Source: Chloroflexota bacterium | GTDB taxonomy: Bacteria; Chloroflexota; Limnocylindria; Limnocylindrales; CSP1-4 | Assembly (NCBI GenBank): GCA_003141455.1 | Contig: PLMA01000042.1 | Coordinates: 114,953 to 178,952, forward strand | DNA: 64,000 nucleotides | Reading direction: 5' to 3' | In this document: piece by piece, positions 30,140-50,293 of the stretch | Layout: every line of letters starts with the position of its first letter | How positions within the stretch are numbered: the stretch's first letter is position 1 | Notes under the pieces: model-generated | What the model saw: the letters and a program-made list of their open reading frames with translations, nothing else | What the model was told of the DNA's origin: nothing | The model's database searches: none | Made by a program: the position numbers and the translations under genes

Positions 30140-31555
30140 CTAGAGCCCCAGGCGTTCCCTGGCGGCCGCGAGGGCCGTGGCGACGCGACGAGGGGCGGTC
30201 CCGCCTACGACGTCGCAACTGGCCAATGCGCCTTCCAGCGCGGCCGCGGCGCGCAGCTCCCCGGGGAGGGCGGAGTCACCCATGATCGTGAGCGCAACCG
30301 AATCGTCGGACGTGGCCAGGGCCGCCGCGATCGTGGCGTCGTCCAGCGCCTCGAGCCCGATTCCGGCCCTCTCCGCCTCGGCGACGAGCGTCCCCACCAC
30401 GTGGTGGGCGGCGCGAAATGCCACTCCCCGGCGGACGAGGGCGTCGGCGACGGCCGTGGCCGTGGTGTATCCCTCTCCCGCCGCCGCCCGCATACGCTCC
30501 CGGTCCACGGTCAGCGTCTCGACCATCCCGGCCATCACCGCGAGCGAGGCCTCGAGCGTGGCCGCCGCCTCGAAGAGTGGCGGCTTGTCTTCTTGCAGGT
30601 CCCGCTGATACCCGAGCGGCAGCCCCTTGAGCAGCGCCAGAAGACCCGTCAGCGAGCCGATGACCCGCGCTGCCCGGCCTCGCACCAGCTCGGCGGGATC
30701 GGGGTTCTTCTTGTTCGGCATCATCGACGAGCCGGTGGAGAACGAATCGGCCGCCCGCACGAACCCGAACCGCGGATTCGACCACCACGTGATCTCCTCC
30801 GCCAATCGGCTGAGATGGACCATGCAGAGCGCGAAGGCGGCGAGCGCTTCGGCCACGAAATCGCGGTCGCCGACGGCGTCGAGCGAATTGGCCGTCACAC
30901 CGTCGAAGCCGAGCTCCGCGGCCGTCGCTTCGCGATCGAGCGGGTAGCCCGCGCCCGCCAGCGCGCCCGAGCCCAGCGGTGAGACGTTCGCCCGCCGCCG
31001 GCAGTCGGCCAGCCGACCCCTGTCGCGCTCGAGCATCTCGACGTAGGCCAGCAGATGGTGAGCGAACAGGATCGGCTGGGCGGGCTGGATGTGAGTGGAG
31101 CCGGGCATGATCGCATCGCCGTCACGTTCGGCGAGCCGGACGAGCGCCCGCTCCATCTCCAGGACTGCCTCGTCCAGGCCGTCGATCGTTCGCCGCAGCC
31201 ACAGCCGCAGGTCCGTGGCGACCTGGTCGTTGCGCGAGCGGCCGGTGTGCAGCCGACCGGCGATCGGTCCAACCCGGTCCCTCAAGGCCTCTTCGAGGTT
31301 CATGTGGACGTCCTCGAGGGCCGGATCCCAGGCCAGGCTGCCCTCCTCGACTTCGGACCGCAGCCCTTCGAGCCCATGCACGAGCGTCTCGACCTCGTCG
31401 GGGGCCAACAGGCCCGCCCGGCCAAGGCCGTGCACATGGGCGATCGAGCCGGCGATGTCGTCGAGCGCAAGGGCGCGATCGACATCGATCGACCGGGTGA
31501 ACTCGGCCACCCGATCGTCAGTCGTGCCTTCGAATCGACCGCCCCAGAGCCGCAT
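30140..31555 (-). CDS. argH: Argininosuccinate lyase
   Basis: 471 aa from MRLWGGRFEG. Fumarate-lyase signature GSSMMPNKKNP. A GGAGGAGG RBS sits upstream of the ATG at 31555. The longer ORF reaching 31693 is an over-extension. Confidence 0.9.
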   Translation of the reverse strand: MRLWGGRFEGTTDDRVAEFTRSIDVDRALALDDIAGSIAHVHGLGRAGLLAPDEVETLVHGLEGLRSEVEEGSLAWDPALEDVHMNLEEALRDRVGPIAGRLHTGRSRNDQVATDLRLWLRRTIDGLDEAVLEMERALVRLAERDGDAIMPGSTHIQPAQPILFAHHLLAYVEMLERDRGRLADCRRRANVSPLGSGALAGAGYPLDREATAAELGFDGVTANSLDAVGDRDFVAEALAAFALCMVHLSRLAEEITWWSNPRFGFVRAADSFSTGSSMMPNKKNPDPAELVRGRAARVIGSLTGLLALLKGLPLGYQRDLQEDKPPLFEAAATLEASLAVMAGMVETLTVDRERMRAAAGEGYTTATAVADALVRRGVAFRAAHHVVGTLVAEAERAGIGLEALDDATIAAALATSDDSVALTIMGDSALPGELRAAAALEGALASCDVVGGTAPRRVATALAAARERLGL

Positions 31556-31637
31556 CGGTCCTCCTCCATCGCGCCGTTGCCGGCATGGTACCGGGCGACG
31601 GGGGCTGACGCGAGTCGCCGCTCGCAAATGGTTGCCC

Positions 31638-32861
31638 CTACGCGGTCCCGCCGACCGACTCTGCCGCGATCCGGTCCGATGCCGTCTCGTCATGGGGAAG
31701 GGCCACGAGCCCGATGAAGCCGCCGATCACCGCGCAGACGGCCCCCACTCCAAAGACGCCCAGCGCCCCGGCCTCCGCGTAAAGCAGTCCGCCTAACAGG
31801 TTCGCGAGGATCGCGGCCAGACCGAAACCGGTGGCCTGAAGAAGAGTCTGGCCGGTCGCCTGCAGACGCTCGGGAAGAATTCGAGCAATCGTCAGCACCA
31901 ACGACATGAGAATGCCGCCAAAGAAGATCCCCGAGGCGAACCGCGTCATCAGGATCGGGCCGGCGTCGACCAGCACTATCCAGCTCACCATGCACGCCGC
32001 GAACCCCACGGACGACACCAGCAGAACGGACCGCATGCCAAGCCGGCCAACGAGCCAGCCGGCCAGGATGAGCCCGGGCACCTCGGCCGCCCAGGCGACG
32101 CCGTTTGCGAACCCGACCTCGACGGCCCCGCCGCCCAGGTCCGCTATCCGCAGGGAAATGTACGTCCCGGACGCCATGCAGCCCATGAAGACGAAAATGA
32201 CCGCGAGCAGAACGGCCACCAGCCGAGGTCGGATCCTGAACGCCTCTCCGACGGACCCGAAACGCCCCCGTTCATGGGAGAGACGATCACGTCCGTCGAG
32301 CGCGCGCCGGGCGTTCTCGTGGCGCTCGCTGTCCCGTCCCATCGGGACGAACTGGGCCGAGATGAGCGCCAGGGCCATCGTCGCGATGTACAGGAACGGC
32401 GCGGCCACGTAGCCGGTCTGGCTGTAGACGATGCCGCAACCGATCGCCCCGCCGGCCGCACCGGCGCTGCTCAACAGCCGAAGTCGCGAGTACTCGCGAG
32501 AAACATCGGTCAGGACCGGTAGGGCCATGGCGTCGGTCAGGGCCATGATCGGGCCGCCGCCGGCGCAAATGAGTATCTGGCAGACGATCACCGCCGCGAC
32601 GGGGAGTGGCACGCTGAAGCCCAGCGCGAAGACGGCCGCCGGCAGGCAGGCGATCTGCAGCGCACGCCTGGGTCCGCTTACGACGTCGCCCACGTGACCC
32701 CAGACCGGCAGCGCCAGGGTGTAGGCAACCGAGCCCAGGCTTGTCGTCAGCCCGATCAGGGCCGGATCGAATCCCTTCGCCTGCAGCAGAACGGGCACGA
32801 AGCCGTACAGGGCGCCGACGGCAAGCCCGTTGGAGACGTACAGGGCCCGCAACCAACGCAC
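31638..32861 (-). CDS. MFS transporter
   Basis: 407 aa with 12 predicted TM helices. The hydrophobicity pattern and loop motifs are typical of the major facilitator superfamily. Confidence 0.7.
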   Translation of the reverse strand: MRWLRALYVSNGLAVGALYGFVPVLLQAKGFDPALIGLTTSLGSVAYTLALPVWGHVGDVVSGPRRALQIACLPAAVFALGFSVPLPVAAVIVCQILICAGGGPIMALTDAMALPVLTDVSREYSRLRLLSSAGAAGGAIGCGIVYSQTGYVAAPFLYIATMALALISAQFVPMGRDSERHENARRALDGRDRLSHERGRFGSVGEAFRIRPRLVAVLLAVIFVFMGCMASGTYISLRIADLGGGAVEVGFANGVAWAAEVPGLILAGWLVGRLGMRSVLLVSSVGFAACMVSWIVLVDAGPILMTRFASGIFFGGILMSLVLTIARILPERLQATGQTLLQATGFGLAAILANLLGGLLYAEAGALGVFGVGAVCAVIGGFIGLVALPHDETASDRIAAESVGGTA

Positions 32862-32968: not shown

Positions 32969-33751
32969 ATGTCGCGGCGTGGCCGCTGGGTGAGGGCGAC
33001 GGGGTACCATCGCGGAGTGCCCGATCAGCTCGATCTCAGTCTCACCGGCGACGAGGCGCGCCTGCCCCGATCGCTGCGGCCGATGCTGCCCAGGCCCGCC
33101 GAGGCCGCCTTCGATTCGGACGAGTTTCTCTTCGAGCCGCGGTGGGGCGGCCTGCGGACACTCGCGTTCATCGAACCGGACCGATCCGGGCGTGGCGCGC
33201 GACTCCGGCTCCTGGACGAGCTGGGTCGGGACCTGGCTCCGCACCTGCCCGAGCTTGCCAGTCTGCCCGACCTCGTCGGCGAATTGCCGGCGATCCTCGA
33301 CGGCGAGATCGTGGTCCCCGACAGGATCGGCCGCATGGACGATGACGCGCTGGTCGGTCGCCTAGCCGACGGCCAAACGACGGGCTCGGCTCCGGTCTTC
33401 CTGGCCTTCGACCTTCTGTGGGCCGCAGGGCGGCCCATCATCGCTCTGCCGCTCCAGCGCCGGCGCGAGCACCTGGCCCGGATCGTGCGCCCGAGCGCCG
33501 AGCTGGTGGTCATGCCCGGCGTCGTTCACGATGGAACGGATCTCTACTCCGCGGTCGCTCAGCAAGGCCTGCGCGGCGTCATGGCGCGCCACCTCAGAAG
33601 CCCGTATCTGCCCGGCCGCCGCAGTGCGCTATGGCGATGGATCGCGGTCCAGCCCGGCGAGATACCGTTGCACGTCGTGCCGGACCTCCTGGCGACGCCG
33701 CCTTCGAGACCGGTATTGGCCCTGATCCAGCGGCTGCCGCTCGAGGATTGA
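32969..33751 (+). CDS. ATP-dependent DNA ligase-like protein (LigD/LigC ligase-domain homolog) that contains no lysine and has a degenerate motif I. Probable pseudo-ligase.
   Basis: Colinear ligase motifs are present: FEPRWGGLR (canonical EPKWDG), ILDGEIVV, FLAFDLL, GLRGVMAR (canonical GxEGxVxK) and SPYLPGRRSALW. The 260-aa ORF has zero Lys. The likely start is ATG 33083 (MLPRPAEA). Confidence 0.6.
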   Translation: MSRRGRWVRATGYHRGVPDQLDLSLTGDEARLPRSLRPMLPRPAEAAFDSDEFLFEPRWGGLRTLAFIEPDRSGRGARLRLLDELGRDLAPHLPELASLPDLVGELPAILDGEIVVPDRIGRMDDDALVGRLADGQTTGSAPVFLAFDLLWAAGRPIIALPLQRRREHLARIVRPSAELVVMPGVVHDGTDLYSAVAQQGLRGVMARHLRSPYLPGRRSALWRWIAVQPGEIPLHVVPDLLATPPSRPVLALIQRLPLED

Positions 33752-33795: not shown

Positions 33796-35115
33796 CTACC
33801 GCGAGACGCGGGCGGCCTTGAGGATCTGGCGGAAACCGACGCGCTGGCCGTAGAGCAGCACGCCGGCGCTGTAGATCCGCGCGGCCACGACCAGCGCGAT
33901 CGCGATCGCGACCAGCAGGAAGACGACCGCCAGCCCGAACTCCCAGACCTCCACGTGGCCAACCGAGACCCGCGCAAGCATCAGGTACGGGCTGAAGAAC
34001 GGGATGAACGAGGCGATCCTGACCCACGTCTCGTCGATCGCCTGCAGCCCGAAGATCGACATGAAGTAGCCGATCATGATCAGCATCATCAGCGGCGAGG
34101 TTGCACTCTGGACGTCCTCCTGCCGGCTCACCATCGAGCCGAGTGCGGCGTACAGGAGCGAGTACAGCAGGAAGCCCAGAGCGAACAGGACCACGAACGC
34201 CGCGAGAACGGGAGCGTTAAGGCCGCCGAATGCGCCGCTCGTACCGGAGCCGCTCAGGACGGCTTGATGAATCGGACCCTGGGCCACCAGCCCAACGACG
34301 ATTGCTCCCAGGATGATCCCGTATTGGGTCAACCCGGCCGCCCCGTTCCCGATCACCTTGCCCGCGAGCATCTGGAGCGGCGTGGTGGCGTTGAGCATCA
34401 GCTCCATGACACGGCTGCCCTTCTCCTCAGCGACGCTCATAGCCACCCACGTGCCGTAGGTGATGATGGCCATGAAGATCAGCACGATCAGCCCTGTCGA
34501 GAGCAGCGTGGACGACACTTCCTGACTGATGCTGTGGACCGCGGCCGTCCCGGACGAGCTGACCGGCAACACCTTCAAGTTGGTAGGAGCCAGAACGGAG
34601 GCCGTCGAGGTACCGGCGCGGACCAGCCCATCCTCGATGGCGAGCATCCGCGTAGCGCTGGTGATCATCTGCGCCTGCCGGCCGTCCGAGGGCATATCTG
34701 TCCTGAGGATGAAGGCAAGGTCGCGGCTGGTTGGATCCCGATCGATGATGAGAAGGGCATCGAACTTGCCCGTTTCCAGGGTGCTCTGAGCCGAGGCCGG
34801 GTCGCCGCCGACGAACCAGCTCAACGCATATGGCTTGTGAGAGCTCGAATCGGCGGCCGTACCCGAACCGTTGAGCACCTGATCTACGACCGTCAGCGCA
34901 TCCGACGGAAGGCCCGAGGCCGTCGCGAGGATTTCGACGCGCGTCTGGCTCGTGCCTTCGGCAACATCGATCAGGACCGGGAGTTGCGTCGCCGCGAAGG
35001 CGACGACGGCCAGGATGAGCGTGCCGATCAGGAAGCTCCGGCTGGTGGCGCGGCTCCGATATTCCCGCACCGCGACGTACCAGGCATTGGGGAAGAGGTT
35101 CCGCCAGCCGCTCAT
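33796..35115 (-). CDS. ABC-2 family transporter permease
   Basis: 439 aa. An N-terminal TM helix is followed by a large extracytoplasmic loop and a C-terminal 5-TM ABC-2 permease domain. It overlaps the stop of the upstream ATPase gene. Confidence 0.75.
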   Translation of the reverse strand: MSGWRNLFPNAWYVAVREYRSRATSRSFLIGTLILAVVAFAATQLPVLIDVAEGTSQTRVEILATASGLPSDALTVVDQVLNGSGTAADSSSHKPYALSWFVGGDPASAQSTLETGKFDALLIIDRDPTSRDLAFILRTDMPSDGRQAQMITSATRMLAIEDGLVRAGTSTASVLAPTNLKVLPVSSSGTAAVHSISQEVSSTLLSTGLIVLIFMAIITYGTWVAMSVAEEKGSRVMELMLNATTPLQMLAGKVIGNGAAGLTQYGIILGAIVVGLVAQGPIHQAVLSGSGTSGAFGGLNAPVLAAFVVLFALGFLLYSLLYAALGSMVSRQEDVQSATSPLMMLIMIGYFMSIFGLQAIDETWVRIASFIPFFSPYLMLARVSVGHVEVWEFGLAVVFLLVAIAIALVVAARIYSAGVLLYGQRVGFRQILKAARVSR

Positions 35116-36056
35116 GCGTACACCGCCTTGGGGGCGAGCGTCCGCTCGCTCGTGTCCATCTGGCCGACCTGCTCGATGAAGATCTCCTCAAGCGATGGGT
35201 CGGCAATCTCGAAATGGAGGATCTTGCAGTGGCGGGCCAGGGCGGCCTGGAGGACCATCTCCGGATCGAAGCCCTTCGCTACCTCCGCCTCGGTGTAGTC
35301 CTGGCCGCGCCTCGTGACGCGAACGCCGTCGAGCGTCGCGAGCCAGCCGATCTCGGGATCGCCCTCCACGGCGAGCCGGACTACCTGCCGTCCGGACGAG
35401 CGGCGCACGTCGCGGAGGTTGCCGCCCACGACGACTCGCCCGCGATCGAGGATGGCGATCGCCTCGCACAGCTCCTCGACCGTCTCCATCTGGTGAGTCG
35501 AGAAGATCAGGGTCTTCCCGCGGTCTTTCATCTCGAGGAACGCCTCCTTGAGCAGCGCCACGTTGATCGGATCGAGGCCGGTGAAGGGCTCGTCCATCAG
35601 CAGCACCTGCGGGTCGTGAAGGATCGCGGCGATGAACTGGATCTTCTGCTGGTTGCCCTTTGACAGCTGCTCCGCGCGACGGTCGGCGTACTCGGGGATG
35701 CGGAAACGATCGAGCCAGTCGCGCGTCTCCCGTTCGGCCGCCTTGGGTTTCACGCCGTGCAGCTTGGCGAAGAAGACCAGCTGGTCGAGGACCTTCATCT
35801 TCGCGTAGAGGCCCCGCTCCTCCGGCAGGTAGCCCCAGGTCTCGTGCGGGAGATCCCTGTTCGAGCGGCCGCCCCAGGTAACCGTCCCAGAGTCCGGCCG
35901 GAGGATGTCCAGCACGACGCGCATGGCCGTCGTCTTGCCGGCGCCGTTGGCGCCCAGGAAGCCGAAGACCTCGCCCGGCTTGATCTCGAGCGAAACCGCG
36001 TCGAGGGCCAGTACGTCGCCGAAGCGCTTAGTGATCGAGTCGATGACGAGGGACAT
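35112..36056 (-). CDS. ABC transporter ATP-binding protein
   Basis: Walker A GANGAGKTT, signature LSKGNQQKIQF, Walker B LLMDEPFTGLD. It is translationally coupled to the permease. Confidence 0.9.
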   Translation of the reverse strand: MSLVIDSITKRFGDVLALDAVSLEIKPGEVFGFLGANGAGKTTAMRVVLDILRPDSGTVTWGGRSNRDLPHETWGYLPEERGLYAKMKVLDQLVFFAKLHGVKPKAAERETRDWLDRFRIPEYADRRAEQLSKGNQQKIQFIAAILHDPQVLLMDEPFTGLDPINVALLKEAFLEMKDRGKTLIFSTHQMETVEELCEAIAILDRGRVVVGGNLRDVRRSSGRQVVRLAVEGDPEIGWLATLDGVRVTRRGQDYTEAEVAKGFDPEMVLQAALARHCKILHFEIADPSLEEIFIEQVGQMDTSERTLAPKAVYA

Positions 36057-40976: not shown

Positions 40977-41057
40977 CGGGACGCGGGCCCCGGCGGGCAC
41001 AGTTCTCCGGGCGCGGTATGGACGGCGCCTATTGCGCTGCGGCCGCGACTGGCGAGA

Positions 41058-43280
41058 ATGGGCCGATGCACTCAACTCCCCGTTGAGACGACAAACGTCG
41101 AGGCGTACGGGATACAAGTGACCGCCATCGTTCGAAGGACCTCCGCCAGATCGGCCTCCGCCGGTCGCAAGGCCGGCTCGGAGTTCCCGTACATCAACCG
41201 CGAGTTGAGCTCATTGGAGTTCAACCGCCGCGTCTTGTACGAAGCCCGCGACGTGCGCAATCCGGTCCTCGAGCGCGTCAAGTTCCTGGCCATCTTCGCC
41301 AGCAACATGGACGAGTTCTTCCAGATCCGCGTCGCCGGCCTGATGGATCAGGCCGCGGCGAAGGCCGCCCCCAGCACTCCCGGCGAGCACCCGGCGGCCG
41401 AGCAGCTGGCAGCCATTCGGGCCCGCTTCCGCGAGCTGCTCGTGGAGCAGCACGACGCCTTCGACGAGGTCTGCTCGGCGCTGAACGACGCGGGGCTCGA
41501 GATCGTCGACTACGCGGAAGTGCCAGAACACCACGCCGCCCTGCGCCGGCGGTTCATCGACGAGATCTCCCCGGTCCTGACCCCCCTGACCGTCGACCCC
41601 GGCCATCCGTTCCCGTATATCAGCACTCTCAGCCTCTCCGTAGCGATCCGCCTTGAAGACCCGGAGGAGCACGAGGAACGGTTCGCCCGGGTCAAGGTGC
41701 CGCCCGTGCTGCCGCGGTTCCTCGAGATCGAGCCGCACAGGTTCGTCCTGCTGGAGCAGGTCATCGCAGCCAACCTGGACCGGCTCTTCTTCGGCATGAT
41801 GATCCACGAGACGCACTTCTTCCGGATCACGCGCAACGCCGACCTCGAGCTCGAGGAAGACGAAGCCGACGATCTGATGATGGCGATCGAGGAGGAGCTC
41901 CGGCGCAGGCGGTTCGGCGAGGCCGTCCGGCTCGAGGTGGACCAGGCCATGCCGGCCTCGATGCGCCGGATTCTGGAGCATGGCGTGGGCGTCGACCCCG
42001 AGGACTGCTACGAGATCTCCGGCATGCTGGATCACACCGGGCTGTGGCAGATCGCCGCGCAGGACCGGCCCGACCTCGGGCTGCCTCCCTACTCGCCCGT
42101 GGTGCCGCCGCGTCTGGTTCCGCCGGACGAGGACGAGCCGGCCGACGTCTTCGCCGCCGTCCGCTCGGGCGACATCCTGGTGCACCACCCATACGAGAGC
42201 TTCGCGGCCTCGACTCAGAGGTTCATCGCCCAGGCCGCCGGCGATCCCGACGTTCTGTCTATCAAGATGACCCTGTACCGCACCAGCGGCGACTCGCCCA
42301 TCGTGCGAGACCTCATCTCGGCCGCCGAACGAGGCACGGAAGTCGTGGTCCTGGTCGAGATCAAGGCCCGCTTCGACGAACAGGCGAACATCACCTGGGC
42401 GCGCAAGCTCGAGCAGGCCGGCGCGCACGTCGTCTACGGTCTGGTCGGCCTCAAGACGCACTCCAAGACGGCGCTCGTCGTCCGCCGCGAAGGCTCGACG
42501 CTGCGCCTGTACGTCCACATCGGCACGGGCAACTACAACTCCGGCACGGCTCGCTTGTACACGGACTTCGGCCTGCTCTCCTGCCGGCCCGAGCTCGGGG
42601 CCGACGTCAGCGATCTCTTCAACGTCCTGACCGGCCTGTCGCGGCAGCGCGACTTCAGGCGACTGATCGTGGCCCCGATGAACCTGCGCCGCTGGGTTCT
42701 CGAGATGATCCGGCGGGAGGCCGACCACGCCAGGGCCGGCCGGCCAGCCCACATCATTCTCAAGCTGAATTCGCTGGTCGATCCGGCATGCGTTGCCGCT
42801 CTCTACGCCGCCCGGCAGGCCGGCGTCGAGATAGACCTGATCATCCGTGGCATCTGCTCGTTGTGGCCCGGCGTGCCGGACGTCAGCGACGGCATCCGCG
42901 TGCGCTCGGTCGTGGGTCAGTACCTTGAGCACTCGCGCGTCTTCCATTTCGCCAATGACGGCCACCCTGAGTGGTACATCGGCTCGGCCGATCTCATGGA
43001 GCGAAACCTCGACAGGCGCGTCGAGGCCCTGGTGCCGATCGAGGATCCGGAAGCGCAGCGCAGCGTCCAGGCCGTGATCGAAGTCCTGCTCGCCGACGAC
43101 AGGCGCTCCTGGCAGTTGGGCTCTGACGGCGCGTACCGCCGCACCGAGGAACTCACCGGCGTTCCGGGTACCATCGACATCTTCGAGACGCTGCAGAAGC
43201 GGGCCATCGCGTCGTCGACGGCCGTCGCAGCGCCGCGACGGCCGCATGCCGGCATCGGATCGCTCGATCCAAGGGCGTAG
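41058..43280 (+). CDS. ppk: Polyphosphate kinase 1
   Basis: 740 aa. N-terminal motif YINRELSSLEFNRRVL. PLD-like C-terminal domains. The conserved His sits in an LVGLKTHSK-like motif. Confidence 0.9.
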   Translation: MGRCTQLPVETTNVEAYGIQVTAIVRRTSARSASAGRKAGSEFPYINRELSSLEFNRRVLYEARDVRNPVLERVKFLAIFASNMDEFFQIRVAGLMDQAAAKAAPSTPGEHPAAEQLAAIRARFRELLVEQHDAFDEVCSALNDAGLEIVDYAEVPEHHAALRRRFIDEISPVLTPLTVDPGHPFPYISTLSLSVAIRLEDPEEHEERFARVKVPPVLPRFLEIEPHRFVLLEQVIAANLDRLFFGMMIHETHFFRITRNADLELEEDEADDLMMAIEEELRRRRFGEAVRLEVDQAMPASMRRILEHGVGVDPEDCYEISGMLDHTGLWQIAAQDRPDLGLPPYSPVVPPRLVPPDEDEPADVFAAVRSGDILVHHPYESFAASTQRFIAQAAGDPDVLSIKMTLYRTSGDSPIVRDLISAAERGTEVVVLVEIKARFDEQANITWARKLEQAGAHVVYGLVGLKTHSKTALVVRREGSTLRLYVHIGTGNYNSGTARLYTDFGLLSCRPELGADVSDLFNVLTGLSRQRDFRRLIVAPMNLRRWVLEMIRREADHARAGRPAHIILKLNSLVDPACVAALYAARQAGVEIDLIIRGICSLWPGVPDVSDGIRVRSVVGQYLEHSRVFHFANDGHPEWYIGSADLMERNLDRRVEALVPIEDPEAQRSVQAVIEVLLADDRRSWQLGSDGAYRRTEELTGVPGTIDIFETLQKRAIASSTAVAAPRRPHAGIGSLDPRA

Positions 43281-43301
43281 CGGCAAGGCCGGAGGGCATC
43301 G

Positions 43302-45182
43302 GTGGCCACGGAGCGCAAGATCGAGGTCGAGCTCAAGTACCAGGTCACGACCCCTGGCGGCGCTGATCGCTACCTCGTGGCGCCCGAAATCGGCCCGTTC
43401 AAGCCCGTCGGCCAGATCCGGTCGGTCCGGCTCGAGGACGGCTACGTCGACTCGGCCGACTGGGGACTGGCCAGGGCCGGCTTCGCGGCTCGCCTGCGCC
43501 GGACTTCCGCGGGAACGCTCATCAGCGTGAAGGCGCACGCCACGTCCGGCGTCCGGCTGCATCGGCGCGAGGAGATCGAAGGCCCGGCCGACGCGGCCAG
43601 TGCGCCTAGAGACTGGCCCGACTCACAGGCCCGAACGGTCGTCCTCGAACTGTGCGGCGACGAGCCGCTGATCGAGCTTCTCAAGATCCGACAGCTGCGC
43701 AGAGTCCGCCGTCTCGAGGCCGGCGAGTCCAGGGCTGAGCTGAGCCTGGACGAGGTCGAGGTCTTCGGCAACGACACGCTGCTCGAACGTTTCGATGAGC
43801 TGGAGGTGGAACTCAAGAAGGGGGGCGAGGAGCCCCTGGAGGCCCTCGCGGACCTATTCGACCGGGACGAGGCCCTCCGCCCTGTCTCGGGATCCAAGCT
43901 GGACCGAGCGGTCCTGGCGATGAGGACGGCCTTGCCAACCATGCCCGAAGCGGTACGGAGGCGTTGGAGCACGGCTCCGCCGGAGCTGCTCGACGGCAAG
44001 TCGAAAGCCGCCAGACGCAAAGGCCGAGCCGCGAGCGAGGGCGCCACGACCGACGGCCTCGCCAGGCCTCCGCGAGATGCCACCCGGTCCTCGACTGACC
44101 CCGCCGCCACGTCCGAGACGGATCCGGGAACCTCCCGAGTCAGCGAGGCGGAACCTGCGGCCTCGGCGCCGGGCGGGCCAGAGTCCGAGTCGTCCGAGTC
44201 CCAGCCTGAGCCCGCGCCCCAGACGCCCATCCTCGCGCGTCGCCCCGGGCCTCGCACGCTTGGGATCGTGGCGGACGACAGCCTGCCGGAAGCCGCCCGG
44301 AAGGTCCTCCGGTTCCATTTCGCCCGGATGCAGAACCGAGAAGCCGGAGCCCGGAACGGAGACGACGCGGAGGATCTGCACGACATGCGGGTCGCGGTAC
44401 GGCGGATGCGAGCGGCCTGGCGGGTCTTCGACGACGCTTTCAAGTCGAGCCGCACCAAACGCCTGAGGCGGCGTCTGGAGAGCCTCTCCGACAAGCTCGG
44501 CTCGGTGAGAGACCTGGACGTGCTGACGCAAGGGCTGGAGGCCTATCGCCTTGGCCTGGATCCCGAGCAGCAGCCGGGCCTGGACCCGCTGCTGTCGCTC
44601 TGGGCCCGGCAACGTTCGTCTGCGCGAAGACAGCTCATCGAAGAGCTCGACTCGGGCGGGTACTCCGCCTTTGTCCGCGAGATGGAGGAATTCCTCGCGG
44701 CGGGCTCGAACGCGGCCGCCTCCGTGCCCACTCCCACGATCCCCCACCGAGTCAGGGACACGGCACCGTCCCAGATCTGGGCAGCCTACGAGGCGGTCCG
44801 GGCCTATGAGCTGGTCCTGCCCTGGGCCGACATCGAGACCATTCACCAGCTGCGGATCGCCACCAAGTGGCTCCGCTACACGCTGGAGTTCTTCGGCGAG
44901 ACTCTGGGCCCGGACGGCCCGCGCCTCCTGGGCCGTGTGGCCGCCCTCCAGGACTTCCTGGGCGATCTCCACGACGCCGACGTCGCCGCCAAGCTCGCCC
45001 GAGACGTGCTGGTGGCCCGGGCCGGCGAGTTGTCCCGCACGGAGACCGAGGCGATCGGCGCGTACCTCCACTCCCGCGAGCGAGAGCTGGTGCGGCGCCG
45101 TCGTTCGCTCGGCCCGATCTGGCGTGCGGTCAACGGGGCGCCGTTCAGGCGAGCTCTGGGTCGAGCCGCGGCAGCTTTGTAG
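43302..45182 (+). CDS. CYTH (triphosphate tunnel metalloenzyme) and CHAD domain-containing protein
   Basis: The N-terminus has the EVELKY CYTH signature. The C-terminal CHAD domain has DLHDMRVAVRRMRAAWRVF...LGDLHD. A low-complexity linker lies between them. It is directly downstream of ppk1. Confidence 0.75.
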   Translation: MATERKIEVELKYQVTTPGGADRYLVAPEIGPFKPVGQIRSVRLEDGYVDSADWGLARAGFAARLRRTSAGTLISVKAHATSGVRLHRREEIEGPADAASAPRDWPDSQARTVVLELCGDEPLIELLKIRQLRRVRRLEAGESRAELSLDEVEVFGNDTLLERFDELEVELKKGGEEPLEALADLFDRDEALRPVSGSKLDRAVLAMRTALPTMPEAVRRRWSTAPPELLDGKSKAARRKGRAASEGATTDGLARPPRDATRSSTDPAATSETDPGTSRVSEAEPAASAPGGPESESSESQPEPAPQTPILARRPGPRTLGIVADDSLPEAARKVLRFHFARMQNREAGARNGDDAEDLHDMRVAVRRMRAAWRVFDDAFKSSRTKRLRRRLESLSDKLGSVRDLDVLTQGLEAYRLGLDPEQQPGLDPLLSLWARQRSSARRQLIEELDSGGYSAFVREMEEFLAAGSNAAASVPTPTIPHRVRDTAPSQIWAAYEAVRAYELVLPWADIETIHQLRIATKWLRYTLEFFGETLGPDGPRLLGRVAALQDFLGDLHDADVAAKLARDVLVARAGELSRTETEAIGAYLHSRERELVRRRRSLGPIWRAVNGAPFRRALGRAAAAL

Positions 45183-45400
45183 CCGCACCGGAGCGGCGCC
45201 GCACCAGGAACTAGCGGGACCGGCTACCCGCCGCGGGTGGACCGCTTTTCGTGACTGTATGCTTGCCAGCCAAGAGGTACGGCGTCGCCGCGTTCCTCTT
45301 CCGTGGCCTCGTGCCGATACCCGCATGCATCGCTGGATGCGGCGGGCCGCCGAACTCGCCACGGGCATGGACGGCGCACGATCTCCGGGCAGGGTCCAGA

Positions 45401-46084
45401 GTGCAGGCAAGCGACCGATTCGGCGCCCACGTCCATCGCGACGTCTTCGATCAGGAACTGCTCCTGGTCAAGGAAGGCGTCGTGCGCATGGGCGTCCTGG
45501 TCGAAACCGCGATCGACTCCGCGGTCGCCGCTCTCGCGGCCCGTGACACCCGGGCGGCCGCGGACGTAGTCGCCGGCGATCGGGCCATCAACGAGGCTCA
45601 CGCCGAGCTGACAACCCTGATCGTGACCACGATCGCGACGCAATCCCCCGTCGCCACGGATCTTCGGTTCCTGATCGCCCTGGCTCACATCGCCTACGAG
45701 CTCGAGCGGATCGGAGATCACGCCGCCGGCGTGGCGAAGCGGGTCGCCAGGATCGGGTCCATGGCCTCCTCCGCGGATTCGGGGCTCGTGACGATTGGAG
45801 AGCTGACCGGCAGCATGCTCCACGGGGTCCTTCGATCGCTCGTCGATCTCGACGCGACAGAGGCCCGCGCCATGGCCGGACGCGATGACGAGATCGACCG
45901 CCTCTACCACTCCTACTTCGAGCGCGCGCTGGAGCGCATGAGGACCGACCCTGCCTGGGTGGACACCGGGGCGCACCTGCTCTTTGCCGCCAAGGACCTG
46001 GAGCGCATCGGCGACCGAGCCACGAACATCGCCGAGGAAGTGGTTCTCCTGTCCACCGGCGAGGTCGTCGACCTCAACCCCTGA
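45401..46084 (+). CDS. phoU: Phosphate signalling complex protein PhoU
   Basis: The six-helix PhoU repeat is DRAINEAHAEL...[14 protein letters not shown] ... [12 protein letters not shown]...LERIGDRATNIAEEVV. I prefer the GTG at 45401. The longer ORF from 45251 is a likely over-extension. Confidence 0.8.
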   Translation: MQASDRFGAHVHRDVFDQELLLVKEGVVRMGVLVETAIDSAVAALAARDTRAAADVVAGDRAINEAHAELTTLIVTTIATQSPVATDLRFLIALAHIAYELERIGDHAAGVAKRVARIGSMASSADSGLVTIGELTGSMLHGVLRSLVDLDATEARAMAGRDDEIDRLYHSYFERALERMRTDPAWVDTGAHLLFAAKDLERIGDRATNIAEEVVLLSTGEVVDLNP

Positions 46085-46138
46085 CCCGCATCGCACAGTC
46101 CGGCCCGCACAGAGCCGGCGGCGTGCGATCATCGACGT

Positions 46139-46648
46139 GTGAGAACGCAGCCATCGATCCAGTTGCACCTGCTCCGGCACGCCCATGCGGGCGATCCCCT
46201 CAAGTGGACCGGCGCCGACGACGTCCGCCCGCTATCCGAGAGGGGTCGTTGTCAGGCGGAACGGCTGGGCCTCTTCCTGGCGAAGACCGGCTTCGAGCCG
46301 GATCTGATCCTGAGCTCCCCGAAGCTTCGAGCCCTGGAGACGGCCCGGCTAGTGGCGACGCCCCTGGGACTGCCGACCCGGGTCGTCGACGCGCTCGCCG
46401 GTCCGCTGGACATCGACACCCTGGAAGAGTTGCTCCACGCCTCGGGCAACCCAGTGCGGCCATTGCTGGTGGGCCACGACCCGGATTTCAGCGTTCTTGC
46501 GGCCGAGCTCGTGGGCGTGGCGGACCTGGCGATACGCAAAGGGACGCTGGTGCGAATAGACCTCGACCGGCCGATCCGGCCTGGAGCCGGCGTACTTCGG
46601 TGGTTCGTTCCTCCCGACCTGCTCGCCACCCGCGATCACCCCGATTGA
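46139..46648 (+). CDS. Histidine phosphatase family protein (SixA-like phosphohistidine phosphatase)
   Basis: 169 aa. The N-terminal catalytic motif is LHLLRHAHAGD (RHG), and the C-terminal motif is LLVGHDPDFS. Confidence 0.7.
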   Translation: MRTQPSIQLHLLRHAHAGDPLKWTGADDVRPLSERGRCQAERLGLFLAKTGFEPDLILSSPKLRALETARLVATPLGLPTRVVDALAGPLDIDTLEELLHASGNPVRPLLVGHDPDFSVLAAELVGVADLAIRKGTLVRIDLDRPIRPGAGVLRWFVPPDLLATRDHPD

Positions 46649-46745
46649 CGCTCGGCAGGGGCGCGGTATGCTTCGCCGACGTCCCACGTGCGCCGGGATC
46701 CTGAGGCGCGCCGCCGCCGCGAAGGCATCGCGGATTAGGAGACCG

Positions 46746-47174
46746 ATGGCCAAGAAGCGCGATCGAAAGAAGGGCGCGAACGCCGGCAAAGATGGGGCGG
46801 CTGCGGCCGGTCGAGGCTTGCGGCGGCGTCTTCGCCGGCTGGAGAAGATGCTCGCCGTAGCGGCGGCGAAGGAAAGCCGGCGCGTTCGGAAGCTCGAGAA
46901 GGCTCACGTCCGGCGCCAGCAGATCGAGGCCAAGATCGAGACGGCCCGGCTGGCCGCGTCACTTGCCCCTGCCGCTTCGGTCAAGGCTCCGAAGGCTCCG
47001 CCGGTGAGCTCGACCGGCGACCCAGGGCCCAAAGCCGCGCCGGCCAAGACTCCGGCCAAGGCCGTTCGGGCTAAGGCACCGGCCAAGACCGTGCGGGCAA
47101 AGGCCGCGCCGGCCAAGACCGTGCGGGCAAAGGCCGCGCCGGCAACCCCGCCAGAGTCGCCGACAGCGTCCTGA
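46746..47174 (+). CDS. Lys/Ala-rich basic histone-like protein with a tandem AKxVRAKAAP repeat tail
   Basis: MAKKRDRKKGANAGK... with a coiled-coil-like middle and a C-terminal tail PAKAVRAKAPAKTVRAKAAPAKTVRAKAAPA. The ATG at 46746 lies within the longer ORF that begins at 46668. Confidence 0.55.
   Translation: MAKKRDRKKGANAGKDGAAAAGRGLRRRLRRLEKMLAVAAAKESRRVRKLEKAHVRRQQIEAKIETARLAASLAPAASVKAPKAPPVSSTGDPGPKAAPAKTPAKAVRAKAPAKTVRAKAAPAKTVRAKAAPATPPESPTAS
47081..47140 (+). repeat. Exact 30-nt tandem duplication (ggccaagaccgtgcgggcaaaggccgcgcc x2) inside the histone-like gene, with degenerate copies upstream
   Basis: 47081-47110 is identical to 47111-47140. It encodes the repeated peptide AKTVRAKAAP. 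Confidence 0.8.
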
Positions 47175-47238
47175 AGATCAGGCGCTGCCCCATCTGGCGC
47201 AAACCCCGCCCGGCCGGCTCACCGGCTGGGTCGGTCGC

Positions 47239-48549
47239 TCACGCAGGCGCCACGGAGTCATCCTCCGGGGCAGGCTCCGTCGCCTCGCCGGCTGCCCCTG
47301 ACGCGGGACCGGCCGCGACTCCCAGCGCCGCCACCGGTACGGCAAAGGAGAAGGTCGAGCCCTCGCCCTCCTCCGACTCGACCCAGATCCGGCCGCCATG
47401 CATCTCGACCACGTGGCGGGCGATCGACAGGCCCAGGCCCGTGCCCCCGCGACCGCGGACCCTGGCCCGGTCCACCTTGTAGAAGCGCTCGAAGATCCTG
47501 GCTATGTCCGCTCGCGGAACGCCGATCCCGGGATCCCGAACCCAAACCACGACTTCGCCGTCGTCTTCGCGAACACCCACGACGATCTCGCCGCCGTTCG
47601 GGCTGAACTTCACGGCGTTGTGGAGCAGGTTTACCAGTACCTGGCCCAGGCGATCCTCGTCGCCGCGAACGGGAGTGACGTGGTCGGGCAGCTCCAGGGC
47701 AAGGCGCAGTCCCTGGCGCTCGGCGAACGGCCGCAGCCTCTCGGTGGTGGCCTGGGCGACTCCGACCATGTCCACATCGTCGAGCAGCAGCGCGGCCGTC
47801 CCGCTTTCGATCTTGGAGAGATCGAGAAGCTCGTTCACCATCTGTATCAAGTGACCGGTCTCCACCTCGATCTTGGCAATGCGGTCGCGGAGGCGCGGAG
47901 ACGCCGACTCGGCGTCGTGTCCGGCAGTCTCGGCCAGCAAGCTGATGGTCGTAAGCGGCGTTCGCAGCTCATGCGACAGGTTGTCGATGAACTCGGCGCG
48001 GATGCGCTGCAGCCGCCGGAGTTCGGAAACGTCTTCGAGGACGAGCCACACGCCCGATACAGGAGACCGACGAGCGCGGACCGTGACCGTCGCCGCCGAG
48101 CTGGACCGCACCGTCAGCTCGCCGTTTGCCGACCCGAACTCCATTGCAGTCCGGGCAACTGCCTCGATCCGGGGGTCGACGAAGGCCTCCAGGGCGGAGC
48201 GACCGACCATCGTCCCCGGCCGACGCTCCAGCATTACGTGTGCGGCGCTGTTCGCGGACTCGACCGTCAGGTCGTCGCGAAGCCGGACCACCCCCGCTGT
48301 GAGCAGCTCGGAGAGGTATCCCGTGTCGTGGATGACCTGCTCGGCGTCCCAGCGGGCGGCATCGGCCGATTCGAGGGCGCCGCGGACACGTCGCTCGACG
48401 TCGTCGGCGTCGCCGGCACCGGTCGCATCGCGCAGACGCTCGATCACTCGGCCACGAGTGATGGCGACCGCGAGAGCCCAGGCCAACAGGATCGCCAGGC
48501 CGACTATGAACAGGACCGAAACGGCGTCCACAGGTCGAGCATGGCACAC
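47239..48549 (-). CDS. Sensor histidine kinase (PhoR-like, with TM and PAS)
   Basis: N-terminal TM helix, a PAS-like region, the H-box LSHELRTPLTTI, and an HATPase (NLLHNAVKFSP, DPGIGV, GGTGLGLSIAR). Confidence 0.8.
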   Translation of the reverse strand: MCHARPVDAVSVLFIVGLAILLAWALAVAITRGRVIERLRDATGAGDADDVERRVRGALESADAARWDAEQVIHDTGYLSELLTAGVVRLRDDLTVESANSAAHVMLERRPGTMVGRSALEAFVDPRIEAVARTAMEFGSANGELTVRSSSAATVTVRARRSPVSGVWLVLEDVSELRRLQRIRAEFIDNLSHELRTPLTTISLLAETAGHDAESASPRLRDRIAKIEVETGHLIQMVNELLDLSKIESGTAALLLDDVDMVGVAQATTERLRPFAERQGLRLALELPDHVTPVRGDEDRLGQVLVNLLHNAVKFSPNGGEIVVGVREDDGEVVVWVRDPGIGVPRADIARIFERFYKVDRARVRGRGGTGLGLSIARHVVEMHGGRIWVESEEGEGSTFSFAVPVAALGVAAGPASGAAGEATEPAPEDDSVAPA

Positions 48550-48632
48550 TGCCGAGAGTTCGGCAGTCTCGGCGCGGCTGGCAGCCCGGGCCGTAGGCCG
48601 CTAACCTAAGCGAGTCAACCCACGAGGTACCG

Positions 48633-49253
48633 GTGCCGTCGTTTCGTCTGATCCCGCGCGAGGAACGCTTCTTCGACCTGTTCGTCGAGGATGCGGCCAA
48701 CGTCCTTGAGGGCGCCCGCCAGCTGGAGACGATGCTGCGCACCTTCGACAACCCGGACAAGGCCGCCAAGAAGATCCGGGAAACCGAGCACAAAGGCGAC
48801 GAGATCAGCCACGACATCGGCCGGCGCCTGGAGCAGAGTTTCGTCACCCCCTTCGACCGCGAGGAGATCCACGCCCTCATAAGCGGCCTCGACGACGTCC
48901 TGGACCTGATCGAGGAAGTGGCCGACACGTTCGTCCTGTACCACATCGATGCGCCTACCAAGACCTCGATCAAGCAGGCTGCGCTCATCGTCCAGTGCTG
49001 CGAGACGCTCCACCAGGCCCTGAGCAACCTGCGCGGCTTCAAGGATCTCGACAAGTTCGTCATCGAGGTCCATCGCCTCGAGAACGAGGGCGACCGATTG
49101 GCCCGTTCGGCAATTGCCGGTCTCTTCGACGACGGCGCCAAGGCCATGGAAGTCCTCAAGTGGAAGGACATCTACAGCTTCCTGGAAGACACCATCGACA
49201 AGTGCGAAGACGTGGCCCAGATGATCGAGCGCATCGTCGTCAAGCACGCCTGA
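48633..49253 (+). CDS. DUF47 family protein (PhoU-like phosphate-transport regulator, Pit accessory protein type)
   Basis: 206 aa. FFDLF...ETEHKGDEISHDIGRRLEQSFVTPFDREEIHALISGLDDVLDLIEE matches the TIGR00153/DUF47 family. Confidence 0.7.
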   Translation: MPSFRLIPREERFFDLFVEDAANVLEGARQLETMLRTFDNPDKAAKKIRETEHKGDEISHDIGRRLEQSFVTPFDREEIHALISGLDDVLDLIEEVADTFVLYHIDAPTKTSIKQAALIVQCCETLHQALSNLRGFKDLDKFVIEVHRLENEGDRLARSAIAGLFDDGAKAMEVLKWKDIYSFLEDTIDKCEDVAQMIERIVVKHA

Positions 49254-49303
49254 CTCTGGGAGCGAAACCTCGGGCGGGAGTGCGACGGCCGCCTGCTGAA
49301 CTC

Positions 49304-49339
49304 AACGTTTACGCCGCCCGAACACGCCGTTAACGTGGC
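49304..49339 (+). promoter_or_regulatory. PHO-box-like array of three 11-bp direct-repeat units (GTTTAcgccgc CCGAAcacgcc GTTAAcgtggc), 18 nt upstream of the atypical regulator gene
   Basis: It has the same architecture and near-identical sequence to the array at 50188-50220 (AACGTT ... N19 ... GTTAA with identical spacing). Confidence 0.45.
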
Positions 49340-49356
49340 GCTGCGACATTCGGGCG

Positions 49357-50214
49357 ATGACGCAGGCGCATGACCACGTTCCGCCAGGCGCCGGCACCAA
49401 TCCCCAGCCCGGCAGTTTCGCCTTCTCCCCTCCGGCCGAGGGGTTCACCGGCTGGCTGGCCCTCTCCGACCCGGACGGCCCGATCGATCTGGCGCGCCTC
49501 TTCCCCAATGTCGACGTCCGAGTCGAGACCAGTTCGGCGGCCTTCTCCGAGGCGCTGTCGGTAGTCGAGCCGCGCCTTGTGGTCCTCATCGCGCCACCGG
49601 CAGGACCGGGTGACCTCCAGCGTGTGGCGAGCTGGCTGGGCGGCCACGACGAATCGCGCGCGGTCCTTCTCAGCCCTCACCCGTCCGTGGCGGCCCGACT
49701 GCACGCGCTCGAATTGGGCTTCGACGATGCCGTGGACCTCTCCTCGGACCCCATGGAGGTGGTAGGACGGCTCTCGATCGCGGGGCGCCGCGGACCGGGA
49801 ACGGTGCGCCTCTCCGACGACAGGATTCCCGTGGGCGAGGGCGTAGAGCTGGACCGTCGGGCCCACGCGATCCGCCGCGACGGGCATCTCATATCGCTCC
49901 GGCCCAAGGAGCTGGCCCTGCTCGAGTTCATGGCGATGCGCCCCGGGCGTGCCTTCACCCGCGGGGAACTGCTCAAGCACGTCTGGCACGACGCCGTCGG
50001 CCACGGGCGCATGGTCGACGTCTACGTCTTCTGGCTCCGCTCGAAGATCGAACGCGATCCGGCCGGTCCGGTCCACCTCGTGACCGTGCGTGGCTCGGGC
50101 TACCTGTTCGACCCGCCCAAGACGCCCGCCGCGGATCTGGCCGGTCACGGCGCGGCACCGGGCGGTTGGCCAGCAGGACCGTCGAACGTTAACGAACCGC
50201 CAACACAGCGTTAA
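49357..50214 (+). CDS. OmpR/PhoB-type winged-helix regulator with a degenerate receiver domain that lacks the acidic pocket
   Basis: The C-terminal trans_reg_C domain is ISLRPKELALLEFMAMRPGRAFTRGELLKHVW...VDVYVFWLRSKIE...LVTVRGSGY. The N-terminal receiver-like region is LVVLIAPPAGPG. It has neither the DD pair nor the phospho-acceptor Asp. Confidence 0.65.
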   Translation: MTQAHDHVPPGAGTNPQPGSFAFSPPAEGFTGWLALSDPDGPIDLARLFPNVDVRVETSSAAFSEALSVVEPRLVVLIAPPAGPGDLQRVASWLGGHDESRAVLLSPHPSVAARLHALELGFDDAVDLSSDPMEVVGRLSIAGRRGPGTVRLSDDRIPVGEGVELDRRAHAIRRDGHLISLRPKELALLEFMAMRPGRAFTRGELLKHVWHDAVGHGRMVDVYVFWLRSKIERDPAGPVHLVTVRGSGYLFDPPKTPAADLAGHGAAPGGWPAGPSNVNEPPTQR

Positions 50215-50220
50215 GCGCCC
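50188..50220 (+). promoter_or_regulatory. PHO-box-like array of three 11-bp direct-repeat units (GTTAAcgaacc GCCAAcacagc GTTAAgcgccc), ~75 nt upstream of pstS
   Basis: Exact 11-bp periodicity. It overlaps the stop codon of the regulator gene and is paralogous to the 49304-49339 site. Confidence 0.45.
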
Positions 50221-50293
50221 CCTTCGATCATCCGAGCGGAACCTGGGAGCAGGTTGGACTCATCTAGCCGCCCACCACAGAGGAGACACTAAG

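Follow-up and report, generated by a model that had tools for sequence, protein, structure and literature searches.

A lysine-free, probably non-catalytic relative of LigC/LigD-type DNA ligases with two conserved terminal peptides in the Limnocylindria

ATP-dependent DNA ligases are textbook enzymes that are defined by the lysine of their motif I, and the Limnocylindria are an abundant lineage of soil, peat and freshwater. The gene considered here was found in a 64,000-nucleotide stretch of the Chloroflexota assembly GCA_003141455.1 (contig PLMA01000042.1, positions 114,953 to 178,952 of the forward strand; hereafter the window), and its product resembles the nucleotidyltransferase (NTase) domain of the ligases of non-homologous end joining (NHEJ). 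An open reading frame (ORF) of 260 codons, 32969..33751 on the plus strand, does exist there without a single lysine, as a preliminary description made from the DNA alone had stated. What appears to be new in this gene, hereafter the pseudo-ligase gene, is a pseudoenzyme offshoot of the LigC/LigD-type ligases which would carry new docking peptides at its termini. A literature search gave no description of natural bacterial ATP-dependent ligase homologs without the lysine, or of the present family, and a search on DNA repair in the Limnocylindria returned nothing relevant.

The codon-position GC of the ORF follows the pattern of the real genes of the window (GC3 0.84, GC2 0.51), within a region of uniform composition at ~70% GC. 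The true start is almost certainly GTG 33017, giving a protein of 244 residues, and not ATG 32969; 79 of 81 orthologous loci have ATG or GTG at the codon matching 33017, 10 loci have an in-frame stop six codons or fewer upstream of the aligned start, and public gene calls for homologs are mostly 243–247 residues long. The stretch between the two starts has no counterpart in the orthologs, several of which have stop codons there, and it is probably not translated. The 244-residue protein begins M-P-D-Q-L-D-L-S-L, and residue numbers such as R58, E113, R207 and W224 below are those of the 260-residue ORF. Upstream of the start, a TAnnnT hexamer ends 6–11 nucleotides away in 75 of 80 loci, being exactly TACCAT in 64 of the 80, against a background of 0.9% of 16-nucleotide windows, while a Shine–Dalgarno-like sequence is seen in only 10 of 81. 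Since a conserved −10-like hexamer lies this close to the start and Shine–Dalgarno-like sequences are rare, the mRNA is probably leaderless or near-leaderless. A generic scan for sigma-70 promoters and terminators had no match at the locus, such that TACCAT is visible solely through the comparison of orthologs. The bases around the hexamer (G/C-TACCAT-CG) are also conserved beyond the needs of a bare −10 box, even at 45% ortholog identity.

By sequence and by fold, the protein is securely a member of the ATP-dependent DNA ligase NTase superfamily (PF01068). The Pfam model DNA_ligase_A_M scores 51.4 bits against a cut-off of 26.2 (E 1.4e-13) and covers residues 48–222, and a phmmer search of solved structures places first the ligase domain of Mycobacterium tuberculosis LigD (1VS0, E 1.9e-16, residues 36–222). 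All of the segments quoted in the preliminary description are present (FEPRWGG at residues 55–61, ILDGEIVV at 109–116, FLAFDLL at 144–150, GLRGVMAR at 200–207 and SPYLPGRRS at 211–219), and the homology of RWGG to motif I is borne out by the 1VS0 alignment, in which FEGKWDGYR stands opposite FEPRWGGLR, and GVIAK opposite GVMAR. Moreover, because the K481M mutant chains 6NHX and 6NHZ have their methionine in the column of R58, this column is that of the catalytic Lys481. An AlphaFold2 model from a 23-sequence family alignment has a predicted local distance difference test (pLDDT) score of 84.9, with core block means of 86–96, and a Foldseek search with this model ranks 1VS0 and 6NHX first (1VS0 E 6.7e-15, TMq 0.63; ~29–30% identity across ~200 aligned columns), followed by archaeal and eukaryotic ATP-dependent ligases. 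The Pfam alignment and the structure model, both of which had been proposed as checks in the preliminary description, point the same way. The OB domain (PF04679), on the other hand, has no Pfam match in the ORF; PF01068 is its only domain, and the chain ends after a short linker and a 14-residue tail. The thresholds of the NCBIfam ligase equivalogs are missed (98.8 against 989 for PRK09632, 90.7 against 227.75 for TIGR02779), the best models being those of LigD and NHEJ ligases. The features of the gene and the state of its active site are collected in Table 1.

Table 1. Features at the pseudo-ligase locus (window coordinates), followed by the window counterparts of M. tuberculosis (Mtu) LigD active-site residues (260-residue ORF numbering) with residue counts among the orthologs.
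Feature or Mtu LigD residue	Coordinates or window residue	Strand	Basis, or state and family residues
Pseudo-ligase gene as most likely translated	33017..33751	+	GTG start, 244 codons, stop 33749-33751
5' extension of the ORF from ATG 32969	32969..33016	+	Divergent intergenic/promoter region shared with the MFS gene
−10-like promoter hexamer TACCAT	33005..33010	+	Ends 6 nt before GTG 33017
N-terminal peptide DQLDLSL, candidate beta-sliding-clamp-binding motif	33023..33043	+	Residues 3-9 of the 244-residue protein
NTase (adenylation) domain core	33074..33652	+	Residues 36-228 of the 260-residue ORF; PF01068, 1VS0 alignment, AlphaFold2, Foldseek
Motif I remnant FEPRWGGLR	33131..33157	+	R58 for K481, G60 for D483; E56, R63 kept
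Motif III ILDGEIVV, retained	33293..33316	+	E113 = E530, ribose contact
Motif IIIa FLAFDLL, retained	33398..33418	+	D148 invariant, 81/81
Motif IV remnant GLRGVMAR	33566..33589	+	R202 for metal-binding Glu E613; R207 for K618
Motif V remnant LWRWIA	33629..33646	+	W224 for K635, A226 for K637
Flexible linker of variable length, where real ligases have the OB domain	33653..33706	+	AlphaFold2, relatives, no PF04679 match
C-terminal tail RPVLALIQRLPLED, conserved, predicted short helix	33707..33748	+	81-locus alignment, AlphaFold2
NatAB-like ABC-2 permease and DrrA-type ABC ATPase	33796..36056	−	~45 bp between stop codons, convergent with the pseudo-ligase gene
H465	P43		Lost
E479	E56		Kept; E79/81
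K481	R58		Lost; W31 R19 S19 N7 T2 A2 F1
D483	G60		Lost; G81
R486	R63		Kept; R81
R501	E84		Lost
E530	E113		Kept; E80/81
E613	R202		Lost; A53 R16, others
K618	R207		Lost; R81
R629	R218		Kept; R70/81
K635	W224		Lost; F41 W27, others
K637	A226		Lost; A52 P22, others

The active-site map combines the 1VS0 alignment with the residue list for M. tuberculosis LigD (PMC8656161) and the motif roles given in PMC7470946; motif V was assigned by extending the 1VS0 alignment, with a check against canonical relatives that have W[LI]K.K, and all family counts refer to 81 species-level orthologs. Eight LigD residues are replaced in the window protein, namely seven of the eleven on the published list (H465, K481, R501, E613, K618, K635 and K637) and, in addition, D483. 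The exchange of the motif I lysine for arginine and of the adjacent aspartate for glycine is therefore as first described, and lysine occurs at the K481 site in none of the 81 orthologs. The further lysine-to-arginine change that had been ascribed to motif V is also real, but the label was wrong; R207 belongs to motif IV, while the real motif V positions are W224 and A226. In active enzymes, the adenine-contacting lysine lies in motif IV and further lysines in motif V, and the OB domain contributes motif VI, a requirement for step 1 (PMC7470946). The changes E613A and K637A in M. tuberculosis LigD each abolish nick sealing singly (PMC8656161).

Several features of the pocket are retained, among them D111 of motif III (81 of 81 orthologs), and the SPYxPGxRS hairpin is present as well. 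As judged from the alignments, the half of the pocket that deals with phosphate, metal and nucleophile is dismantled, and the adenine and ribose half is under strong constraint. With the lysine and aspartate of motif I, the metal-binding glutamate, the phosphate-binding arginine and lysines and the OB domain all lost, self-adenylylation and nick sealing should be impossible. In this regard, the catalytically dead pseudo-ligase of the preliminary description appears to be the right assignment, given the eight replaced residues, the absent OB domain and a nucleophile site that is free to vary among the orthologs; the protein is very probably inactive as a ligase. Whether the remaining half of the pocket still binds an adenosine-containing ligand is a more tentative matter, on which our opinion leans slightly to the negative.

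The pseudo-ligase family is conserved within the Chloroflexota class Limnocylindria, as seen from the recovery of related sequences in at least 80 species-level genomes. A word-indexed protein search, in which 8,000 candidates were scored, returned 2,776 proteins at E <= 0.001, and the best 120 of these are 73–95% identical to the window protein, mostly 243–247 residues in length and, where the organism is named, from Candidatus Limnocylindrales; an exhaustive search of 50%-identity representatives added further members at 35–53% identity. When one genome of each GTDB species was scanned, at least 531 stretches were confirmed, the best 80 of which are all family members, at 43–91% identity. 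All but three of these 80 loci come from bins titled Chloroflexi, Chloroflexia, Chloroflexota, Limnocylindria/Limnocylindrales or Anaerolineaceae, the exceptions being titled Methylomirabilota, Thermomicrobiales and Sulfomarinibacteraceae. Against 14 orthologs, the window gene has dN/dS values of 0.14–0.26 (dS 0.26–1.2), and there can be scarcely any doubt that this is a functional gene under selection. The family, in other words, combines the features by which pseudoenzymes are recognised, which are a fold that is kept, catalytic residues that are lost and purifying selection. The gene is irregular at two loci, L029, where the N-terminal part is missing from the ORF, and L032, where the C-terminal tail is swapped for unrelated sequence; these are probably frameshifts or errors in the assembly of metagenome-assembled genomes (MAGs), or else real local decay.

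The total absence of lysine, which was given prominence in the preliminary description, is a fact but not a key feature. Members of the family contain between none and four lysines, with none in 32 of the 81 orthologs, and no alignment column exceeds 22% lysine. The coding-like ORFs of the window average 1.8% lysine, from which the probability of none in 244 residues is ~0.012. Taken with the alignment, this indicates that zero lysine is a by-product of the arginine preference that accompanies high GC and of the loss of the functional lysines, and as such is incidental and only mildly unusual. Lysine avoidance as a selected trait is rejected in view of the other 49 orthologs, which carry one to four lysines at non-conserved sites.

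The best clue to the present role of the protein is a pair of conserved terminal peptides, both of which the preliminary description overlooked. The N-terminal peptide, a candidate clamp-binding sequence with Q4, L7 and L9, is MPDQLDLSLTGD, and it is accompanied at the other end of the chain by SRPVLALIQRLPLED. Across the 81 loci, the N-terminus reads M-x-D81-Q81-L81-[S62 D7 N7 T4 L1]-L80-x-L80 and the C-terminus P80-V70-L73-A78-L71-I71-x-R80-L81-P81-[L61 F20]-[D/E]-[D/E]. The window hexapeptide is QLDLSL (residues 4–9 of the 244-residue protein), and several members have exactly QLSLPL. The motif is placed at the exposed, flexible extreme N-terminus, its position being fixed by the conserved start codon. 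In the AlphaFold2 model, residues 1–10 have a pLDDT of 52, the linker residues 219–229 fall below 50 and the helix at 232–239 reaches ~58; the same picture of low-confidence termini around a confident core is found for the window protein and for an OB-bearing relative (P0136, see below), with the N-terminal motif at pLDDT 52–58. Both peptides are absent, by strict patterns, from 82 canonical lysine-bearing relatives, and they occur in no other of 4,281 coding-like ORFs from 1.7 Mb of Limnocylindria DNA. For QL[SDNT]L.[LF], the frequency in coding-like ORFs is 1.1e-5 per residue, which amounts to a chance of ~1.4e-4 per 12-residue N-terminus. Between the NTase core and the C-terminal tail, the linker ranges from ~15 to ~80 residues among relatives and varies widely in composition; in P0124 it is a long Gly/Ala-rich run of up to ~70 residues (alignment columns ~330–400). 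Such variability, together with the Gly/Ala run, fits a flexible tether the sequence of which is unimportant.

The canonical bacterial clamp-binding motif (CBM) is QL[S/D]LF, with QxxLF as a looser form, and tight binding is described for QLSLPL, the hexapeptide of Hda (PMC12309361). In Escherichia coli Hda (QLSLPL) and Caulobacter HdaA (QFKLPL), the hexapeptide lies within the first ~10 residues and is required for binding to DnaN, the beta clamp (PMC3836487). The family peptide fits the CBM and the Hda hexapeptide at every position, as Q-L-S/D-L-x-L, and it shares with Hda and HdaA the location in the first ~10 residues, from where the hexapeptide of these proteins tethers a folded nucleotide-binding domain to the clamp. 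The similarity has its limits, in that Hda has an AAA+ fold and not that of a ligase NTase, and is an active regulator (of DnaA) with a known target, whereas the clamp peptide of the pseudo-ligase is a candidate by motif. An association with sliding clamps is described for the ligases of eukaryotes, archaea, some bacteria and phage T4 (PMC6212786), and the Foldseek neighbours of the model include the clamp complexes of Lig1 with PCNA (7QNZ) and of an archaeal ligase with PCNA (7RPO); docking on a clamp would fit the ancestry of the protein, since homologous ligases work on sliding clamps. From the peptide and its setting, we consider that binding to the beta clamp is slightly favoured.

A search for relatives that retain the lysine and aspartate, as had been suggested in the preliminary description, gave a series of intermediates, P0143, P0192 and P0136, and these place the peptides in an evolutionary order. 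P0143 (locus L084, 281-1357) is a canonical lysine-bearing LigC-like ligase, with KWDG and EG..K (EGIVAK), which ends in RPRLIVLNSLPF; after a Pro-rich linker, its end is RPRLIVLNSLPFPVT, resembling the C-terminal tail of the family, and it is the only such tail among 89 lysine-bearing representatives. The tail may accordingly go back to active ligases of this lineage, as a peptide for their recruitment. P0192 (Chloroflexota, 385 residues) has arginine for the lysine, whereas its WD and EG..K are intact and its OB domain is good; it has QLALDL near its N-terminus and the tail LTLLSTLPL. P0136 (362 residues) has serine for the lysine and P...R in motif IV, carries both peptides in the form of the family, and has an OB domain of weak Pfam score (E 1e-3), yet of confident AlphaFold2 fold. 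In the lysine-less intermediates P0136, P0192 and P0230 the tail follows the OB domain, as it does in P0143. A rough neighbour-joining tree, drawn without support values, groups P0136 with the short form, other lysine-less OB-bearing lineages being nearby. From these forms, the likely order of events is that the tail came first, that loss of the lysine and gain of the N-terminal peptide came next, and that the OB domain then decayed and was lost.

Other lysine-less LigC-like lineages exist (P0166, P0168/P0179, P0169/P0178, P0261/P0265/P0234, P0192/P0230/P0193, P0160 and P0251, of which P0166 comes from a Dehalococcoidia MAG). The motif I lysine of these proteins has become L, A, M, R or D. Their OB domain has stayed good, and in most cases WDG and the motif IV lysine have survived as well. 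Such proteins, publicly named ‘hypothetical protein’, are like the pseudo-ligase in their non-lysine motif I and, for some (P0192, P0230, P0136), in an LP[L/F] tail or an N-terminal QLxLxL; they differ from it in what they have kept. Loss of the nucleophile seems from their sequences to have occurred repeatedly among the relatives, or else once, deep in the tree.

The likeness of the pseudo-ligase to the ligase domain of M. tuberculosis LigD (1VS0, 6NHX, 6NHZ) and to stand-alone LigC lies in the colinear NTase fold, motifs III and IIIa, SPYxPGxRS and the equivalents of E479, R486, E530 and R629. In contrast to these enzymes, it is without the nucleophilic lysine, the motif I aspartate, the motif IV glutamate and lysine, the motif V lysines and the equivalents of R501 and H465; the OB domain with its motif VI is missing, as are partners of the Ku, POL, PE or PrimPolC kind, and, unlike the canonical LigC/LigD relatives, it has extra peptides at both termini. 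Nor does it resemble the Ku and LigD system of bacterial NHEJ, being a single-domain protein with no fused POL or PE and with no ku among the main ORFs of the window. NCBI names the members of the family ‘hypothetical protein’, and in JGI/IMG the entries P0007, P0028, P0029, P0039 and P0271-P0279 are labelled ‘bifunctional non-homologous end joining protein LigD’ or ‘ATP-dependent DNA ligase’, although POL, PE, the OB domain and the catalytic lysine are all absent from them. On the sequence evidence, the pseudo-ligase should not be filed as LigC or LigD, because it has neither intact motifs I, IV and V nor an OB domain with its motif VI and falls short of the curated thresholds, and such labels could inflate the calls of NHEJ in metagenome surveys.

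The reading that best accommodates these observations, and to which we would give an even chance, is that the protein is a non-catalytic descendant of a LigC/LigD-type ligase that serves as a clamp-tethered pseudo-ligase, either as an adaptor or as a reader of a ligand. It would consist of a folded NTase domain flanked by two flexible, near-invariant peptides, of which the N-terminal M-x-DQL[S/D]LxL would insert into the peptide-binding cleft of DnaN in the manner of the N-terminal QLSLPL of Hda. The C-terminal PVLALIxRLP[L/F]DD, held on its variable tether, may have as its target either the second clamp protomer or a different protein. The domain would then act at clamp-marked DNA as an adaptor, a reader or a competitor, and a 5'-adenylated nick or an adenine nucleoside or nucleotide might be bound in the crippled pocket. 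A more specific version, in which the pseudo-ligase on the clamp reads adenine nucleotides or 5'-adenylated or nicked DNA and controls when nicks are sealed or processed, is decidedly unlikely on present evidence.

There are precedents for the logic of this proposal. ImuB, in the mycobacterial ImuA'-ImuB-DnaE2 mutasome, is a Y-family polymerase without catalytic activity, which uses QLPLWG to bind the clamp and has the function of a hub (PMC10421592); like the pseudo-ligase as proposed, it is a dead homolog of a DNA enzyme with a kept fold, a clamp-binding motif and the role of an adaptor. It differs in being encoded in a damage-inducible cassette together with its partners, whereas the pseudo-ligase is a dead ligase NTase encoded alone. 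Engineered inactive mutants of eukaryotic Lig4 are reported to have a structural role in NHEJ, such that the body of a ligase acts without catalysis (PMC11754673, PMC3694833). These are, however, laboratory point mutants of a full-length protein in a known complex, and the pseudo-ligase is natural, truncated and lineage-wide.

Several points weigh against the clamp-tethered adaptor or reader. The match to the CBM is a post-hoc pattern match, and the C-terminal tail, although it ends in LP[L/F] like the LPL of Hda, is without the leading glutamine of canonical CBMs. The kept adenosine contacts could be structural only, and ligand binding may be restricted to part of the family, since its most distant representatives vary at the motif III glutamate. 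The window protein is mildly acidic (pI 5.6) and has no OB domain, which makes strong autonomous DNA binding doubtful, while the charge of the core is no different in the family from that in active relatives and is uninformative on DNA binding. Moreover, the conserved neighbours in the flanks that were examined include no gene of replication or repair and no operon partner. Among the main coding-like ORFs of the window, ku, the POL and PE parts of ligD and dnaN have no match, and Ku, POL and PE are likewise absent within ±10 kb at L001, a syntenic contig of 1.36 Mb, and at L082; the isolation from ku and from a LigD polymerase or nuclease that was first described thus holds for the main ORFs of the window and for ±10 kb of the syntenic contig. 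P0192, too, has no repair partner nearby.

The main alternative is that the protein is a non-catalytic scaffold whose peptides bind a partner different from the clamp, for example a repair or regulatory protein specific to the lineage, or that they bind each other or the core and so control oligomerisation, the likeness to a CBM being a coincidence. This is rather unlikely, but it draws on the same evidence of lost catalysis and of selection as the clamp-tethered adaptor or reader, and it gains from the misfit of the C-terminal tail to the canonical CBM, from the lack of dnaN or any replication gene nearby and from the fact that short Leu-rich peptides serve many interaction systems. What speaks for the clamp is that the N-terminal peptide fits QL[S/D]L-x-L position by position, including the preference for S or D at position 3, that some members are identical to Hda in QLSLPL, that the peptide, like its counterparts in Hda and HdaA, occupies the very end of a disordered terminus, and that the ancestor was a DNA enzyme with clamp-using relatives.

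A further possibility ties the protein to the neighbouring ABC-2 exporter, for instance as a nucleotide-sensing accessory of the NatAB-like pump. The pseudo-ligase gene stands alone on its strand. On one side is a divergent MFS gene (31638-32861, minus) followed by argH, and on the other the convergent pair of ABC-2 permease and ABC ATPase. Neighbour conservation, measured by targeted tblastn of the real neighbours of the window, shows that the ABC pair directly downstream is kept in orthologs at 45–50% identity while the upstream flank changes; the upstream gene at L036, from a reading of its sequence, encodes an S9-type peptidase. The genes are, however, convergent and not co-transcribed, and conservation extends further downstream, to GBBH_N (37/37 distant loci), YbjQ (32/37) and PPK (35/37). 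The transporter neighbour is absent at L045, L072 and L080 and at the OB-bearing P0192, and the protein has no transmembrane or transporter-related features. The neighbourhood looks like unusually stable block synteny with no specific pairing, and the link to the exporter is very unlikely; as the main explanation it is rejected on account of the convergent genes and of a synteny that reaches unrelated downstream genes. PADLOC gave no match at the locus, so the protein is not a known defence component.

It has also been considered that the protein is still an enzyme, using a different nucleophile or a non-covalent transfer of the nucleotidyl group, which corresponds to the unprecedented chemistry that the preliminary description had offered as its second option. 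The strong conservation of the fold and of the residues that contact adenosine, and the arginine fixed at the K618 position, could be taken in this sense. The nucleophile site, though, is any of W, R, S, N, T, A and F among orthologs, which eliminates such chemistry at this residue, and the only invariant columns of Lys, His, Cys, Ser, Thr or Tyr are S219 and Y213, in the SPYxPGxRS hairpin that is common to normal ligases. Furthermore, the equivalents of E613, K635, K637 and R501 are gone, as is the OB domain with its motif VI, and the loss of the first or third of these is, as noted above, sufficient on its own to stop nick sealing in M. tuberculosis LigD. Retained enzymatic activity is in our view hardly credible.

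An assembly or sequencing artefact, which the preliminary description had wished to exclude, or a decaying pseudogene of a former ligase, as the many lost catalytic residues and a length below that of LigC might suggest, has next to no probability and is refuted by the comparative data, namely hundreds of intact orthologs under purifying selection (from at least 80 species-level genomes, and at least 120 protein clusters of independent assemblies), the low dN/dS, the conserved start codon and −10 element, the coding-like codon-position GC, and Arg codons at residues 58 and 207 (CGG/CGC) that are each two changes from a Lys codon, such that no single base error could restore the lysine and read-level evidence could alter single residues at most.

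If the N-terminal peptide does dock on DnaN, the pseudo-ligase would join ImuB as the second dead DNA enzyme to have been put to new use as an adaptor on the clamp. Were the more specific control of nicks also true, it would represent a new type of ligase-derived, clamp-bound regulator, which might for example protect strand-discrimination nicks or flag abortive ligation. The intermediates, from loss of the lysine through decay of the OB domain to its loss, make a clean case of pseudoenzyme evolution, and the 244-residue protein offers a simple, expressible system for the study of a ligase NTase domain without the chemistry.

The main coding-like ORFs of the window otherwise encode F420 biosynthesis, arginine biosynthesis, two-component systems, a P-type ATPase, PPK, a CYTH-CHAD protein and phosphate uptake, and there is one ammonium transporter in the window where the syntenic contig L001 has two. 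The F420 cluster (721-6459 and 8007-8936) contains CofD (2913-3959), F420-0:gamma-glutamyl ligase (4408-5400) and three luciferase-like monooxygenases, and in the same region lies an Arg-rich ORF of 352 residues (5404-6459) with no Pfam match at 1e-5. A dense phosphate and polyphosphate neighbourhood (40977-58994) holds PPK1, the CYTH-CHAD protein and two PhoU proteins. It further contains a histidine kinase and its accompanying response regulator, a pair formed by PhoU_div/DUF47 and a PHO4 transporter, and a permease that accompanies a PstS-like binding protein. In the longest argH ORF (30140-31693, minus, 517 residues), finally, the N-terminus is extended by an Arg-rich segment which runs into the 3' end of the MFS gene; the real start of argH is probably internal, the L001 ortholog being called at 472 residues.

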